Source of the DNA: Escherichia phage vB_EcoM_VR25
Direction: 5' to 3' (one strand)
DNA length: 64,000 bases
Sequence record: NC_028925.1
Positions 9,028 through 16,928 of this stretch are shown here, piece by piece; within the stretch, counting starts at the first letter, position 1, and each line of letters opens with the position of its first letter. The notes beneath the pieces are model-generated. The model searched no databases. It was not told the origin of the DNA and saw only the letters and a program-made list of their open reading frames with translations. Made by a program: the position numbers and the translations under genes.

Positions 9028-10308
9028 ATGGCAAAGATTAACGAACTGCTGCGCGAGTCAACTACCACTACCAGCAACTCCTTGGGCCGCCCGAATCTTG
9101 TTGCTTTGACCCGTGCTACAACCAAATTGATTTACCGCGATATTATCGCTGAACAACGTACTAACCAGCCAGTTGCGGCTCTGTACGGTGTTAAATATCT
9201 TACTCCTGATAATGAATTCAGTTTCCAGACTGGTGCTACTTATGGTGGTGAAGTCGGTTCTAAAGACCGTACAACTATTCCAGAATTAGCTACAGCTACT
9301 CAGCCTGTTGCTAAAGGCGAATATGTAAAATATCAAAATATCGTTTACAAAGCTCTGGTGGATAATCCATTTGCAACAACCACAGAAACAGTATTATCTG
9401 ATGTTCTACAGGAAGGTCTTATTGCATCGACTATTCGTTTAGTTCCTGATGCAGCGCATACCGAGAAATTTGAAGCCGGTGATGTTGAAATTAGTAACGC
9501 CGTGTTCCAGGTTAATAAATGGAATGCTCCTGTTAAATCCCGTAAATTGAAAACTGCACTGACTGTTGAACTTGCTCAGGATATGGAAGCAAACGGTTTT
9601 AATGCTCCTGCTTTCCTGGAAGACCTGCTTGCAACTACCATGGCAGACGAAATTAACAAAGATGTTCTGCAGTCTCTGATTACCGTTTCCAAGCGTTATA
9701 AAGTCACTGGCGTTTCTGATAAAGGTTTCATCGATTTGACATATGATTCAGCTCCAGAAGGCGCACGTAAACTATACGAACTGGTTTGCGAAATGAACTC
9801 TGAAATTCAGAAAACTACATCTTACTCTGGTACATTCGTTGTTGCCTCAAGTCGTGTGGCCGCGATGCTCGCCGGTTCCGGTTGGTTGAAACATAAACCT
9901 GAAGATGAACAATGGCTCCCGGAAACCGCGTACGGCTATTTGATTAATGGTCTTCCTGTATTCTGTGATGTTAACAGTCCATTGGATTATGTAACCGTTG
10001 GCGTTAAAGAAAATTACGGTGGAAACGAAGTCGTAGGCTCAATCTTCTATGCTCCTTATACCGAAGGCCTGGACTTAGATGATGAAGAACATGTAGGTGC
10101 GTTTAAGGTCATTGTGGACCCAGACAGCTTGCAGCCATCTATCTCCTTGATGGTTCGATATGCACTTTCAGCTAACCCTTACACCGTTGCTAAAGACGAC
10201 AAAGAAGCTCGTATTATCGATGCAACTAATATGGATTTAATGGCCGGCCAGAGCAACATGTCTTATCTGCTCGGTGTTAAACTTCCACCAATCATTTATG
10301 AGGCGTAA
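9028..10308 (+). CDS. 24: Head vertex protein gp24
   Basis: 426-aa ORF; N-terminus MAKINELLRESTTT..SLGRPNLVALTRATTKLIY matches remembered T4 gp24. Confidence 0.93.
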   Translation: MAKINELLRESTTTTSNSLGRPNLVALTRATTKLIYRDIIAEQRTNQPVAALYGVKYLTPDNEFSFQTGATYGGEVGSKDRTTIPELATATQPVAKGEYVKYQNIVYKALVDNPFATTTETVLSDVLQEGLIASTIRLVPDAAHTEKFEAGDVEISNAVFQVNKWNAPVKSRKLKTALTVELAQDMEANGFNAPAFLEDLLATTMADEINKDVLQSLITVSKRYKVTGVSDKGFIDLTYDSAPEGARKLYELVCEMNSEIQKTTSYSGTFVVASSRVAAMLAGSGWLKHKPEDEQWLPETAYGYLINGLPVFCDVNSPLDYVTVGVKENYGGNEVVGSIFYAPYTEGLDLDDEEHVGAFKVIVDPDSLQPSISLMVRYALSANPYTVAKDDKEARIIDATNMDLMAGQSNMSYLLGVKLPPIIYEA

Positions 10309-11592
10309 ATGCAAAAGATTAACGCACTAATTCACGAATCAACATTAACGGCGGCCAACCAGGTCGCCCGTCCTAATTTGCTTTCTTATACTCGGGCTAC
10401 GAATAAACGAATTTTTAAAGCTCTTGTGGCCGAACAGAAAACTACTCAGCCAGTCGCAGCGCTGTATGGCGTTCGTGTTCTGAACCCAGATGATAAAATG
10501 ACTTATCTTGGTGGAGCAACATTTGCAGGCCAGATTGGTATGTTCGAGCGTAAGAATATTCCAGAATTTACGAACAAAGACGAAGCTTATGCAGTCGGCA
10601 ACATGTTCCAGTTTGAAAGCATTGTATTCAAAGCTTTGGAAGCTTCTCCTTTTGCCGGGACCCTCGAAACTGATTTGGGTGAAGTTATTTCTGAAGCCAT
10701 TGCGGCTGGCCATATAAGAATGATGTCAGATGCGGCTTTCACTGATAAATTTGAACAAGGACATCCTGAAATTGCTGAAGCCGGTTTCCGTATTGATAAA
10801 TGGCAGACTGAAGTTAAATCCAGAAAACTGAAAACCTCTTTAACCGTTGAGCTTGCGCAAGACCTGGAAGCAAATGGTTTCGACGCAACAGATTTTATTG
10901 ATAATATCCTTGGTATTCAAATGGCAGAGGAAATTAATAAGGACGTACTGCAATCTTTAATTACCGTGAGTTCGCGTTTTAAAGTCCAGGGTGTTTCCGA
11001 AAAAGGTGTACTTAATCTTACTGATGCCGCTTATGATAATGCTCAGGACCGTGCTCGAACTCTGTATTATTATATGTGCGAAATGAATTCCGCAGTTCAA
11101 CGTCAGACTTCGTTCGCTGGTACATATGCAGTCGCTTCTTCCCGTTGTGCAGCTATTTTAGCAGCTTCTGGCTGGGTTGAGAAAAAGGAAGACCAAGATG
11201 AATTGGCCTATGGTGTTCTGAAGAACGGTTTGCCACTTTATGCAGATATGAATAGCCCGTGCGATTATGTTATTGTTGGTGTAAATGCTGATATGGGTGA
11301 AGGTCAGACAGTCGCATCTTTGTATTATGCGCCTTATACGGAAGGTCTTAGTGAAGTTGATGATGAGGGTGACACCTCGGTTGGGGAATTCAAGGTTATC
11401 GTTGACCCCGAAAGTTTACAGCCTACAGTTGCACTGTTAGCTCGTTATGCACTGACTGCAAACCCTTACACCGTTGCTAAAGACGATAAAGAAGCTCGCA
11501 TTATTGATGGAGCTGATATGGATAAGATGGCTAACCAAAGCCAATTGAGTTCTTATCTTGGTGTTAAACTTCCACCACTGGAAAAAGAATAA
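10309..11592 (+). CDS. Second, diverged gp24-like head vertex protein (tandem paralog)
   Basis: 427-aa ORF starting on the TAAATG junction; clearly homologous along full length to upstream gp24 (MQKINALIHESTLT..., shared C-terminal ANPYTVAKDDKEARIID). Confidence 0.88.
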   Translation: MQKINALIHESTLTAANQVARPNLLSYTRATNKRIFKALVAEQKTTQPVAALYGVRVLNPDDKMTYLGGATFAGQIGMFERKNIPEFTNKDEAYAVGNMFQFESIVFKALEASPFAGTLETDLGEVISEAIAAGHIRMMSDAAFTDKFEQGHPEIAEAGFRIDKWQTEVKSRKLKTSLTVELAQDLEANGFDATDFIDNILGIQMAEEINKDVLQSLITVSSRFKVQGVSEKGVLNLTDAAYDNAQDRARTLYYYMCEMNSAVQRQTSFAGTYAVASSRCAAILAASGWVEKKEDQDELAYGVLKNGLPLYADMNSPCDYVIVGVNADMGEGQTVASLYYAPYTEGLSEVDDEGDTSVGEFKVIVDPESLQPTVALLARYALTANPYTVAKDDKEARIIDGADMDKMANQSQLSSYLGVKLPPLEKE

Positions 11593-12617: not shown

Positions 12618-12714
12618 AATCTCTCACTTTTGATGTTATAAATATCATTATAAATTATACCCTCTATACTTTCTTTCTCTGAAAGGAATTAATCGTATCG
12701 GAAGGTCTAGAACC

Positions 12715-13210: not shown

Positions 13211-13347
13211 GTTGAGTTAGTGAAGCTATCTTAACATGGAATTTTTAACTTGTAAACAGGAGTTTTATGCCAGATATTCTTGAACGTAAAGATTTACTTT
13301 ACAACCGCCACTACTTTAATAAATATTAAATTAATAACGGAGGATTT

Positions 13348-14928
13348 ATGACACAAACTACAGGTGAAAAAGAAGGCGTATTTTACGGTTATTCTCTTTA
13401 TGATTTGAATAAAGAAAAACTAATAACTTTTGATGAATTACTTACAGGTGTTCAAGGAGAGCCCGGAGAAAATGGCGATATTGGACCAAAAGGCCCTATT
13501 GGTTTAACAGGTCCTCAAGGACCGAAAGGTGATACCGGGTCAAAAGGTATTAAAGGTGATACCGGCCCTCAAGGTATTCAAGGGCCCGCTGGCCCACAAG
13601 GTCCTCAGGGAGAAAAGGGAGTCCAAGGTTTAGCTGGAGTCCAAGGCATTCAAGGACCAGTCGGCCACCAAGGAGTGAAAGGTGATACCGGCCCTCAAGG
13701 TATTCAAGGACCGAAAGGTGATACAGGTCCTCAAGGCCCACAAGGTGACAAAGGCGAAATGGGTCCGGTGGGTCCGGCTGGTCTAACATGGAAAGGAACA
13801 TGGGACGCTGATGTAGAGTATTCTATAAATGAGGCTGTCGGATATGGTGGTTCTTTATATTTCGCCAAAACAAAAGTTCCTAATGGCGAAATACCAACAC
13901 CGACTTCTAACTATTGGGGTGTTTTGGCTACCGAGGGTCCACAAGGTCCACAAGGTCAACAAGGTCTTAAAGGTGATACCGGTCCTCAAGGTATTCAAGG
14001 ACCTGTAGGGCCTGTAGGGCAGCAGGGTATTCAGGGACCAAGAGGACTTCAAGGGTCAGAAGGTGAAATAGGACCGCGGGGTATTCAAGGGCTAAAAGGC
14101 GAAACTGGGCCCGCTGGTCCACAGGGTATTCAAGGGCTAAAAGGCGAGGTGGGTGCTCAGGGTCCTTCTGGTTCTCCTGGACTTACAGGACCAGAAGGAC
14201 CTCGTGGGTTAACAGGCGAAGCTGGAGCTCAAGGACCTCGTGGTGCTATAGGTCCTATCGGTTTAACAGGTCCTATCGGTTTAACGGGTCCTCAAGGTAT
14301 TCAAGGTCCTAAAGGTGATACAGGTCCTCAAGGCTTACAAGGTCCTCAAGGCTTACGAGGTATTCAAGGAGCTCCTGGAGTAAAAGGAGAAGCGGGTGCA
14401 CAAGGTCCTATCGGTTTAACAGGTCCGAAAGGTGATACCGGTCCTCAAGGTATTCAAGGACCGAAAGGTGATACAGGAGCACAAGGTCCTATTGGTTTAA
14501 CTGGACCTAAAGGTGATACAGGCCCGAGCCCTTATACTGTTTATAATTATTCTAATGTTGCAACTGGTTATGCTGAAATGGTTATGCCTGGTGTGTCATC
14601 AAACACAGTATTTAGACTTCGTTCAGTTGGAACTAATATAGAATATAGTGTTCTAAGTAAAGGCGGAGCTAATAGATATGTAGATTGGCACTTTTCAATT
14701 CCAAGTGTTTCCGGCAATACAGTAAGTACTAATAGCGGAACTAATACATTAACTCCTACAGGTAATTTTACTATTGTGGCGACCGCTTATAATGGACTAA
14801 GGGGATTTACAATAACATTATGCGAGTGGGGTTCAAGAGCTATTGTTGATATCACTGTTTATCATCATGGGCGTTCGGGAGACACAACCAAAGCTGTGGC
14901 TATTCGTATGACTACTACAAAATACTAA
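13348..14928 (+). CDS. Collagen-like (Gly-X-Y repeat) protein with aromatic globular insert and C-terminal globular domain
   Basis: 526-aa ORF, GGAGGA RBS; two long uninterrupted G-X-Y blocks (about 13450-13790 and 13930-14525) separated by a W/Y-rich segment; about 135 aa non-collagen C-terminus. Confidence 0.85.
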   Translation: MTQTTGEKEGVFYGYSLYDLNKEKLITFDELLTGVQGEPGENGDIGPKGPIGLTGPQGPKGDTGSKGIKGDTGPQGIQGPAGPQGPQGEKGVQGLAGVQGIQGPVGHQGVKGDTGPQGIQGPKGDTGPQGPQGDKGEMGPVGPAGLTWKGTWDADVEYSINEAVGYGGSLYFAKTKVPNGEIPTPTSNYWGVLATEGPQGPQGQQGLKGDTGPQGIQGPVGPVGQQGIQGPRGLQGSEGEIGPRGIQGLKGETGPAGPQGIQGLKGEVGAQGPSGSPGLTGPEGPRGLTGEAGAQGPRGAIGPIGLTGPIGLTGPQGIQGPKGDTGPQGLQGPQGLRGIQGAPGVKGEAGAQGPIGLTGPKGDTGPQGIQGPKGDTGAQGPIGLTGPKGDTGPSPYTVYNYSNVATGYAEMVMPGVSSNTVFRLRSVGTNIEYSVLSKGGANRYVDWHFSIPSVSGNTVSTNSGTNTLTPTGNFTIVATAYNGLRGFTITLCEWGSRAIVDITVYHHGRSGDTTKAVAIRMTTTKY

Positions 14929-14937
14929 GGAGCTTTA

Positions 14938-15801
14938 ATGGAACCGGTTAAAGCTGTGTTAGAGCCTGATGTAATAGATGTGGAATATGGTAATACATAC
15001 TCGGCTACTGTAACTCTGTCTCCTATAGAAAATATTCCAGATGGTTCCGTGATAAGATATGATTGGGTTGTTAATAACAAGTTCGTTGGTACGGGTGAAG
15101 CTACTCGTACCACCCAACCATCTCAGACCGGAAATTATGTATTATCATGTAGAGTATTCATTACTCCGCCTAATGAAAATACTGTAATGATAACAACTAA
15201 TAAATCATATGGGTATGTATATAAAAATTCCGATACAAGTCCAGTAGATGCAGAAATATTATATGATAACAAGATATACCAAATAGGAAGCAAAGTTAGA
15301 TTATTAGCCGTTGCCAATAACCCAGATACCAACTTTGTTAAAGGTATTATATGGAAGGATGCTGATGGTAAGATAATAGGTATAGGTCGGGAATATATCC
15401 ATACAATGCAATCAGAGTATGATATAGTTCGAGCTAAAGTTACAATGGATTCGCCTATAAGAGATGAATTTAGTAAGAACTTTACTATACATTTGTACGC
15501 TATAAATGTTCAAGAAGGAACATGTATAAGATATATTCATCCTTTAGACCACAGGGATGCAGGATTTATCTGGTGTGGTTGGTGGGTTATGGATGAAATC
15601 CAACGAGCGATAAAACTTGGGCTGGATTGGAAAAATCCAAAAGAGCTAGATTTAAATTACAAGTGTGATTTAGAGACATTAGCGTTATTGCTCAAGACAT
15701 ATCCTGAAGCCGAAGTTCAAGAATCAAGACACGGATATATAATAACCAGACTACAAATTGAGACTGGCGAAATATATAAAAAACCATATGAAGTAAAATA
15801 A
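14938..15801 (+). CDS. Hoc-like capsid decoration protein (second hoc paralog)
   Basis: 287-aa ORF, AAGGAG RBS; C-terminal region (HPLDHR..IWCGWWVMDEIQ..YPEAEVQESRHGYII) shares the capsid-binding domain with the canonical Hoc downstream. Confidence 0.85.
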   Translation: MEPVKAVLEPDVIDVEYGNTYSATVTLSPIENIPDGSVIRYDWVVNNKFVGTGEATRTTQPSQTGNYVLSCRVFITPPNENTVMITTNKSYGYVYKNSDTSPVDAEILYDNKIYQIGSKVRLLAVANNPDTNFVKGIIWKDADGKIIGIGREYIHTMQSEYDIVRAKVTMDSPIRDEFSKNFTIHLYAINVQEGTCIRYIHPLDHRDAGFIWCGWWVMDEIQRAIKLGLDWKNPKELDLNYKCDLETLALLLKTYPEAEVQESRHGYIITRLQIETGEIYKKPYEVK

Positions 15802-15803
15802 AA

Positions 15804-15817
15804 GGGCCTTGCGGCCC
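15804..15817. terminator. Bidirectional terminator between convergent hoc-like and hoc genes
   Basis: GGGCC-TTGC-GGCCC stem with flanking A/T tracts. Confidence 0.65.
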
Positions 15818-15824
15818 TTTATCA

Positions 15825-16928
15825 TTAATAGACGTAATCGTATATAATACCAGCTTCCAATGCCGAACGGTGGACGATACGACCGTTACGAGATTCCTGT
15901 ACATCAACTTCCGGGTAATCACTAAGCATTTTGGCTAATACCGCCAGATGACAATAATATGGTGTATCCTCTTTAGTGGCTTTTTTCCAATCTGTACTTT
16001 CAGATGTTAATTTCTGAATAGCGTCCATAACCCACCAGCCACACCAAATATACGCAGTATTACGGACAGGAAGTGGATGTACATAAATTAAAGGGCATTC
16101 TTCTGGAATAACAGGCTCTGCTTCTTCCACAGTAACGGACTTAGTACCTGATTTAACTGAATTTGTAAAGCCTGTTTGTGATGCGGTAACTTCACAAGTA
16201 TATGTCTTCAAGCCTTCAGTGGATTCCGTTATTGCTCTTGTTGCTTCTGTTGAGTTGTCGTCCCATTTATATGCAAGAGTCGCACCAGGGATAGCAGGGG
16301 ACACAGAAGCTGTCAAATTGAATGGAACATCAACCGTTGCAGTAGACGGGCCTGAAATCTCAACAGTGAACTCAGGAAATGTATTGTTTTCGACCGTAAC
16401 AACTACTGCCTCAGGATTAATAACTTGATTGTCATAATCTGCCGCAGAAACGGTAATTTGGCAAGTTAAAGAAACTGGTCCTGCGTCAGTAGCAGCACGA
16501 GTAATATCTTTAGTAATTTCACCAGTAGACCACAAATATGCTATTGTAGCTCCACCGGGTTCACCTGTTACATTAGCCGAAGCGTTATATTCCTGACCAA
16601 CTTTAACAGTAGGAGTGGAAGTTGTTAATGTTGCTGTTGCAGCCATAGTCTTATTATTAACCGTAATGGTTGTTTGAGCCTCTGCCGTTTCAGGCTCTCC
16701 TTCTTCCGGCGTTGTGGTGGCAACAACTTTAATTACTTTTGAACCTGCTGGGCCAGCTGCAATATAATCCATAGTAGCAATAACAGAATCTTGTGGAACA
16801 TCATCAACGGTCCATACAAAAGATTCGGTACCAGCGACAGCGGCTCCAGCCCCAGTAGCAGTAAAATTAGTTGTTGCACCTATAACCGCTGTAGGTGTTA
16901 AAGGGGCAATTGATACAGTATAAGCCAT
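15825..16928 (-). CDS. hoc: Highly immunogenic outer capsid protein Hoc
   Basis: 367-aa ORF, Ser/Thr/Ala-rich Ig-like repeats plus C-terminal YVHPLP..YIWCGWWVMD..YPEVDVQESRNG motif as in T4 Hoc. Confidence 0.92.
   Translation of the reverse strand: MAYTVSIAPLTPTAVIGATTNFTATGAGAAVAGTESFVWTVDDVPQDSVIATMDYIAAGPAGSKVIKVVATTTPEEGEPETAEAQTTITVNNKTMAATATLTTSTPTVKVGQEYNASANVTGEPGGATIAYLWSTGEITKDITRAATDAGPVSLTCQITVSAADYDNQVINPEAVVVTVENNTFPEFTVEISGPSTATVDVPFNLTASVSPAIPGATLAYKWDDNSTEATRAITESTEGLKTYTCEVTASQTGFTNSVKSGTKSVTVEEAEPVIPEECPLIYVHPLPVRNTAYIWCGWWVMDAIQKLTSESTDWKKATKEDTPYYCHLAVLAKMLSDYPEVDVQESRNGRIVHRSALEAGIIYDYVY

Follow-up and report, generated by a model that had tools for sequence, protein, structure and literature searches.

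A putative collagen-like fibre with an exchangeable C-terminal knob encoded beside hoc in Escherichia phage vB_EcoM_VR25

The head-gene region of Escherichia phage vB_EcoM_VR25, a T4-type coliphage of the genus Gaprivervirus, carries close to hoc a reading frame for a collagen-like protein that ends in a non-collagen domain. The original prediction saw in it a collagen stalk with a globular head of the C1q/TNF or BclA type, in which the head nucleates trimerisation. This raises two questions: what kind of domain the head is, and on which part of the virion, if any, such a fibre would sit. We addressed both by computational analysis of a 64,000-nt stretch of the genome (NC_028925.1), referred to here as the window. 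Our reading is that the gene product is probably a homotrimeric collagen-like virion fibre with a trimer-registering, exchangeable distal knob, and more likely an accessory head or neck adhesin than a baseplate tail fibre.

The fibre gene and its neighbours

The gene order is gp24, a second gp24 paralogue, rnlB (-), 24.2 (-), 24.3 (-), the fibre reading frame (+), hoc2 (+), hoc (-), inh (-) and uvsW (+), so that the fibre gene and hoc2 form a two-gene unit between 24.3 and hoc, hoc2 sharing the strand of the fibre gene and following it at a distance of 10 nt. The features of the unit are:

13318..13325, + strand: AATAAATA, candidate T4 late-promoter octamer with one mismatch; the fibre start codon follows after 22 nt
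13348..14928, + strand: collagen-like fibre coding sequence, 526 aa, stop codon 14926-14928 (open reading frame list; orthologue of VR7ORF196w and VR26 gp244)
14938..15801, + strand: hoc2, second Hoc paralogue, 287 aa (PHROG 1149 'Hoc-like head decoration', E=1.2e-57)
15801..15820, no strand: GC-rich hairpin between the convergent hoc2 and hoc, likely a bidirectional terminator closing the fibre-hoc2 unit
15825..16928, - strand: canonical hoc, 367 aa (PHROG 1149, E=2.6e-116; synteny with hoc of VR26 and VR7)

Of the 3.4 kb compared with vB_EcoM_VR26, the first 1.9 kb of the fibre locus aligns, with 98.8% DNA identity. The hoc2 product is identical to VR25 YP_009209939.1 and shares with that of the convergent hoc 28% identity over the whole length, rising to 43% in the C-terminal part that binds the capsid. 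A search for related loci with the single fibre protein recovered only the VR26 contig, and the fibre-hoc2 pair is also present as a unit in VR7, KIT01, JS10 and Kosakonia phage 305, as it is in VR26. The fibre gene is accessory, being absent from most T4-type phages, and the T4-type phages that have it invariably pair it with a Hoc paralogue. A fibre beside hoc had been called unusual for such a region, and it is indeed rare (about eight distinct T4-type phages in a set of 50,697 phage records), but annotations of it in phages such as VR7 and JS10 are long-standing.

The hoc2 product is 93% identical to that of KIT01 and only 41% identical to that of VR7, which indicates that hoc2 is mosaic independently of the fibre knob, and no co-variation of knob type with hoc2 type was seen. 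Further upstream, tandem + strand genes (9028-10308 and 10309-11592) encode paralogues of gp24, the capsid vertex protein, that are 57% identical; two copies are annotated likewise in VR26, VR7 and JS10, and one copy is present in the KIT01 stretch examined. The clustering of an extra vertex protein, an extra Hoc and the fibre gene suggests that the capsid surface has been remodelled.

An exact T4 late promoter, TATAAATA, was not found directly upstream of the fibre gene. The nearest exact octamer on the + strand lies at 12637-12644, between rnlB and 24.2. It is oriented towards the fibre gene, antisense to 24.2 and 24.3, and might serve as a late promoter for the fibre-hoc2 unit. Gapriverviruses have an insertion of about 80 nt (13267-13347, + strand) between the fibre start and the ancestral ribosome-binding site and start, which are used in KIT01 and JS10; within it lie a mini-ORF of 20 codons that has a Shine-Dalgarno of its own (13267-13329, MPDILERKDLLYNRHYFNKY and stop) and the late-promoter-like AATAAATA at 13318-13325.

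Stalk and knob of the fibre protein

The fibre protein has five parts in linear arrangement:

13348..13446, + strand: N-terminal 33 aa, conserved motif GE..GV[FY][YF]GY.[LF]YDL....I.F, candidate virion-attachment segment
13447..13788, + strand: collagen segment 1, residues 34-147, 38 uninterrupted triplets (repeat count, Pfam)
13789..13935, + strand: mid-stalk folded insert, residues 148-196, 49 aa, aromatic-rich, CBM5/12-like (model, profile)
13936..14529, + strand: collagen segment 2, residues 197-394, 66 uninterrupted triplets (repeat count, Pfam)
14530..14925, + strand: C-terminal knob, residues 395-526, 132 aa, all-beta (AlphaFold2, HMMER)

Pfam Collagen (PF01391) matches the full protein in six stretches (E=1.9e-50) and is the only family found in that scan. 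The two collagen segments hold 104 Gly-X-Y triplets in total, with Gly in every first position, and their 312 residues correspond to two helices with a combined length of about 89 nm at 0.286 nm per residue. Three chains would wind into a collagen triple helix of this length. The collagen parts have pLDDT values below 45 in the full-length AlphaFold2 model, as expected where a single chain is modelled; the N-terminal 30 or so residues are at 35-57 as a monomer, and the only helix comprises residues 28-32. The stalk is six triplets (18 aa) longer than that of the VR26 orthologue, at residues ~347-364 (14350-14480 in the window). This indel falls within 18/36-nt tandem DNA repeats, and stalk length appears from the sequence to vary through repeat recombination.

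The stalk interruption at residues 148-196 and the conserved 33-aa N-terminal segment had both been missed in the original prediction. The interruption is modelled as a folded domain (pLDDT 89-93 in the full-length model) and is kept in every homologue. Its match to Pfam CBM_5_12 (PF02839) has E=0.034 and 14.6 bits, below the cut-off of 26.2, and when a profile built from 13 insert sequences was compared with the PDB, chitinase chitin-binding domains took all six top places (E 1.4e-3 to 6.6e-3). The insert may be a carbohydrate-binding node, or a hinge, inside the collagen stalk.

The predicted layout of a collagen stalk followed by a beta-rich C-terminal head is borne out by the perfect triplet runs and by the knob model. 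A non-collagen tail of about 135 aa from 14525 had been proposed; the tail is real, but the last triplet finishes at base 14529, so that it starts 5 nt later, at 14530, and is 132 aa long. AlphaFold2 with 14 aligned sequences gives an ordered monomer (mean pLDDT 93.9, pTM 0.88) folded as a beta sandwich of ten strands with no helix, and the full-length model gives the same boundaries (residues 393-526, pLDDT ~90). Strand 1 starts one residue after the Pro-Ser pair that follows the last collagen Gly, and because it directly follows the last triplet, three knobs would be forced together at the end of the helix. Collagens that lack hydroxyproline need a trimerisation domain, and the collagen proteins of E. 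coli prophages have a C-terminal one (PMC3368898). The model makes a trimer-registering role of the knob plausible: most likely the three knobs would fix the register of the chains, and the zipping of the hydroxyproline-free triple helix would nucleate there and proceed from C- to N-terminus.

An exhaustive HMMER search with the knob, covering 1.84 billion representative sequences, returned 19 proteins at E<=1e-3 (top 5.5e-46), of which about 13 are convincing homologues. All 13 are collagen proteins, and they keep the layout of collagen, CBM-like insert, collagen and knob; conserved knob residues include P20, R49, Y50, D52, W100, G114 and R115. Foldseek against BFVD gave 15 matches at E<=1e-3, every named one a phage protein, among them a 'tail fiber-like protein' from JS10 (TM 0.82), a BECP10 phage protein of collagen-like type, a 'tail fiber protein' from Aeromonas phage 65.2, and proteins of Tenacibaculum phages with 8-18% identity. 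The knob belongs to a small, uncharacterised, phage-only domain family without a close solved relative.

The proposed kinship with C1q/TNF and BclA heads found no support in these comparisons. No Pfam family, C1q (PF00386) and TNF (PF00229) included, matches the knob at E<=1, and all 14 aligned knobs are without a meaningful Pfam match, none matching C1q or TNF. A profile that contained collagen was dominated by collagen when compared with the PDB and so was uninformative for the knob, BclA (1wck) appearing via the collagen region only (chain residues 22-81). The comparison was repeated with a knob-only alignment, and neither this profile nor the single knob sequence matched a PDB sequence, leaving the knob with no detectable homology to the BclA CTD. 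By fold, Foldseek against the PDB yielded nothing at E<=1e-3 and no TM-score above 0.45, and no ten-strand jelly-roll superposition on C1q/TNF structures was obtained. The layout itself is the same, a collagen stalk with a C-terminal beta domain of about 130 aa and ten strands, but on these results it is very improbable that the knob is a C1q/TNF-like or BclA-type trimer-nucleating jelly-roll, a phage counterpart of the exosporium and complement-type collagens.

Exchange of knobs and N-termini among phages

When the 50,697 phage records were searched with the knob by tblastn, 23 records matched. Knob identity is 100% in VR26, 56% in the T4-type phages JS10 and Esco_phi_B-01 and in A7_1 and A5-4 (Vequintavirinae), 52% in e4/1c, RobRod40 and AugustePiccard (Drexlerviridae) and 31% in the T4-type Kosakonia phage 305, with weaker matches in other T1-like phages. 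Nearly all of the Drexlerviridae and Vequintavirinae carriers (52-56% identity) are E. coli phages. VR7, VR5 and ESCO10 have a different knob of 102 aa, found in those phages only, and KIT01 has a third type of 160 aa, found nowhere else, on fibre proteins whose N-termini are 87-97% identical to that of VR25. Similarity of the knob profile to the VR7 and KIT01 knobs was not significant by hhalign (E 0.018 and 0.19), and we therefore treat the three types as different; a short 'A-S/N-R' motif common to them is the sole hint of remote homology.

The opposite end also varies. The 33-aa motif is invariant in the T4-type and Vequintavirinae homologues, its carriers being T4-type phages and many Vequintavirinae (CR3, CR8, PBES 02, Pectobacterium phages, A7_1). 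The JS10 homologue (locus L004, 3386-4393) joins the same knob to an unrelated 85-aa N-terminal segment, and in the Drexlerviridae homologues (e4/1c; locus L006, 3882-5399) the N-terminus before the same knob consists of two DUF1737 repeats (E=2e-9). These differing modules are consistent with lineage-specific anchors, and in VR25 the 33-aa motif would anchor the fibre to the virion. That T4-type and rV5-type phages share the motif fits poorly with a lineage-specific anchor, as those virions differ.

A constant stalk with swappable ends, and a tip common to unrelated phages of the same host genus, is the pattern of a phage-fibre binding tip. The knob family bears the hallmarks of a specificity module, being swapped among near-identical phages and common to three phage families on one host genus. 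Because of this module swapping the knobs would most likely be the distal, exchangeable binding tip, with the CBM-like node perhaps helping. It is unlikely that the knob is a folding and registration module only, possibly removed after assembly, with binding located elsewhere, for instance in the CBM5/12-like node. The trimerisation domain that such a collagen requires (PMC3368898) fits this view, as does a mid-stalk insert that resembles chitin-binding domains and is retained throughout, but Pfam gives no match to Peptidase_S74 or another chaperone domain, and one would not expect a module for folding alone to swap between near-identical phages or to span families that share a host genus.

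Possible attachment to the virion and likeness to known systems

Homologues in the other two families, the T1-like Drexlerviridae and the rV5-like Vequintavirinae, are also found among structural genes. In e4/1c the gene is preceded by those for portal, head morphogenesis and protease and by three small genes, and the next gene after it encodes the major head protein. The CR8 (Vequintavirinae) homologue has the major capsid gene on one side and the neck/sheath genes on the other, far from the baseplate/fibre cluster. Two metagenomic relatives lie outside a head module, one after a holin-like gene and one upstream of terminase. A search for a partner common to T4-type and rV5-type phages that might account for the N-terminal motif they share gave none: the neighbour genes in the rV5-type and T1-type loci matched neither the Hoc proteins nor the rest of the 64,000-nt stretch, and as these loci have no Hoc-like partner, hoc2 is not a universal anchor of the fibre.

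It is decidedly unlikely that the gene encodes a non-virion protein, whether mobile-cassette cargo acting in or on the infected cell or a non-functional product. An accessory gene missing from most T4-type phages might be of this kind, but the frame and the 104 perfect triplets are intact across diverged phages with knobs of 30-68% identity, the neighbours are structural genes in all three families, and neither a signal peptide nor an enzymatic domain was found in the fibre protein.

Where on the virion the fibre would attach is the weakest step of our proposal. Gene context, together with the precedent of SPP1 gp12, which according to a review is predicted to form a collagen-like trimer at the quasi-six-fold positions of the capsid (PMC7602432), makes head or neck attachment more likely than attachment to the baseplate. 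Against it stand the labels in the databases. The VR7 orthologue VR7ORF196w is a 'collagen triple helix repeat protein' in GenBank and a 'tail fiber protein' in RefSeq, and the whole VR25 protein matches PHROG 5073 ('tail fiber protein', VR7 gp196-like) with E=4.2e-154. The knob alone matches PHROG 5073 only (E=1.4e-21, covering positions 386-517 of the 519 in the profile), and in the same PHROG scan both neighbouring genes matched Hoc families, none of which is among the best 25 of the 53 matches of the fibre protein. We also count against the proposal the metagenomic contexts, the want of an exact late promoter directly upstream and the N-terminal motif shared between T4 and rV5 types.

A genuine accessory tail fibre, attached to baseplate or tail and recognising the host directly, its position by hoc an accident of where a mobile cassette landed, is possible but doubtful. 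Besides the PHROG and RefSeq labels, it is favoured by the frequency of collagen repeats in phage tail fibres (PMC3368898, PMC7344957) and by exchangeable C-terminal tips that resemble receptor-binding proteins. However, the label appears to be automatic, and no experimental basis for it was found: a literature search turned up no study of the VR7ORF196w family of fibre proteins, and no proteomic, EM or genetic data on the protein from any phage. A 112-kDa collagen protein has been detected in the CB7 virion proteome (PMC7344957), but it apparently comes from another, larger gene (CR8 gp008-like) and so does not count as evidence for a fibre of the VR25 type. The gene lies in the head/neck module in three phage families, away from baseplate and fibre genes, is in T4-type phages always beside a Hoc paralogue, and has no neighbouring fibre chaperone or adaptor gene.

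Attachment to head or neck thus remains the reading we prefer, and it can tentatively be taken further. In a fuller and less likely form the product would be a true head/neck fibre of T4-type phages, a collagen trimer of ~90-95 nm held on the capsid or neck by the 33-aa motif and co-expressed with hoc2, whose swappable knob and CBM-like node make the initial, reversible contact with glycans of the E. coli surface or with mucus, the cassette having been traded between two myovirus lineages and T1-like siphoviruses. If the fibre does sit on the head or neck beside Hoc, a long adhesin would be added to the capsid decoration repertoire of T4-type phages, of relevance to phage adherence to mucus and cells and to capsid display engineering, and the 'tail fiber protein' label would be corrected; as an accessory tail fibre only, it would be a host-range module of the ordinary sort. 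The VR phages are low-temperature viruses (PMC8307508), and a hydroxyproline-free collagen stalk might suit, or even sense, that lifestyle; this is speculation only, since JS10, KIT01 and other carriers are not described as low-temperature phages.

The gene itself is no discovery, being a member of PHROG 5073 that has been in GenBank for years. As far as we found, what has so far apparently gone undescribed is the knob family, with no Pfam entry and no structure, its exchange among three phage families and the linkage to a Hoc paralogue. The nearest systems are the orthologues VR7ORF196w, VR26 gp244 and JS10 gp176, which share the 24.3-hoc locus and the order of parts; they differ in that VR26 has a stalk shorter by six triplets, VR7 and KIT01 have unrelated knobs and JS10 has a different N-terminus. 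A functional analogue is T4 fibritin (wac), a trimeric accessory fibre with a virion-anchored N-terminus, in which a C-terminal foldon provides both nucleation and register of the trimer. Unlike a collagen fibre, fibritin is a coiled coil, and its foldon, of about 30 aa, is not an exchangeable binding knob.

SPP1 gp12 is only about 64 aa long and, to our knowledge, has no globular knob. Like the proposed VR25 fibre it is a predicted collagen-like trimer of a tailed phage, and it sits at the centre of the capsid hexamer, which is also the site of Hoc (PMC7602432). For the VR25 fibre, capsid binding is at most suggested by gene context, with hoc and hoc2 beside the gene and, in e4/1c, the major head protein gene. 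The EPclA and EPclB collagen-like proteins of E. coli O157 prophages are dumbbell-shaped trimers that carry a trimerisation domain at the C-terminus (PMC3368898), and are side-tail-fibre components of lambdoid prophages. Neither the PfN, Pf2 and PfC domains nor the PCoil coiled coil that mark the EPclP group was found in the VR25 protein, in which Pfam detects Collagen only and which has no long helix.

C1q/TNF proteins and BclA likewise combine a collagen stalk with an all-beta C-terminal head of similar size and a probable role in registering the triple helix. Their heads form trimers, as is proposed for the knob. They differ in that their heads have no detectable similarity to the knob in sequence or fold, in that the fibre stalk is broken by a CBM-like node, and in their setting, a spore surface or serum rather than a virus. 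The VR25 fibre would work like a known class of phage fibres, the collagen-like trimers that end in a C-terminal knob, and its likeness to C1q and BclA is one of layout only.
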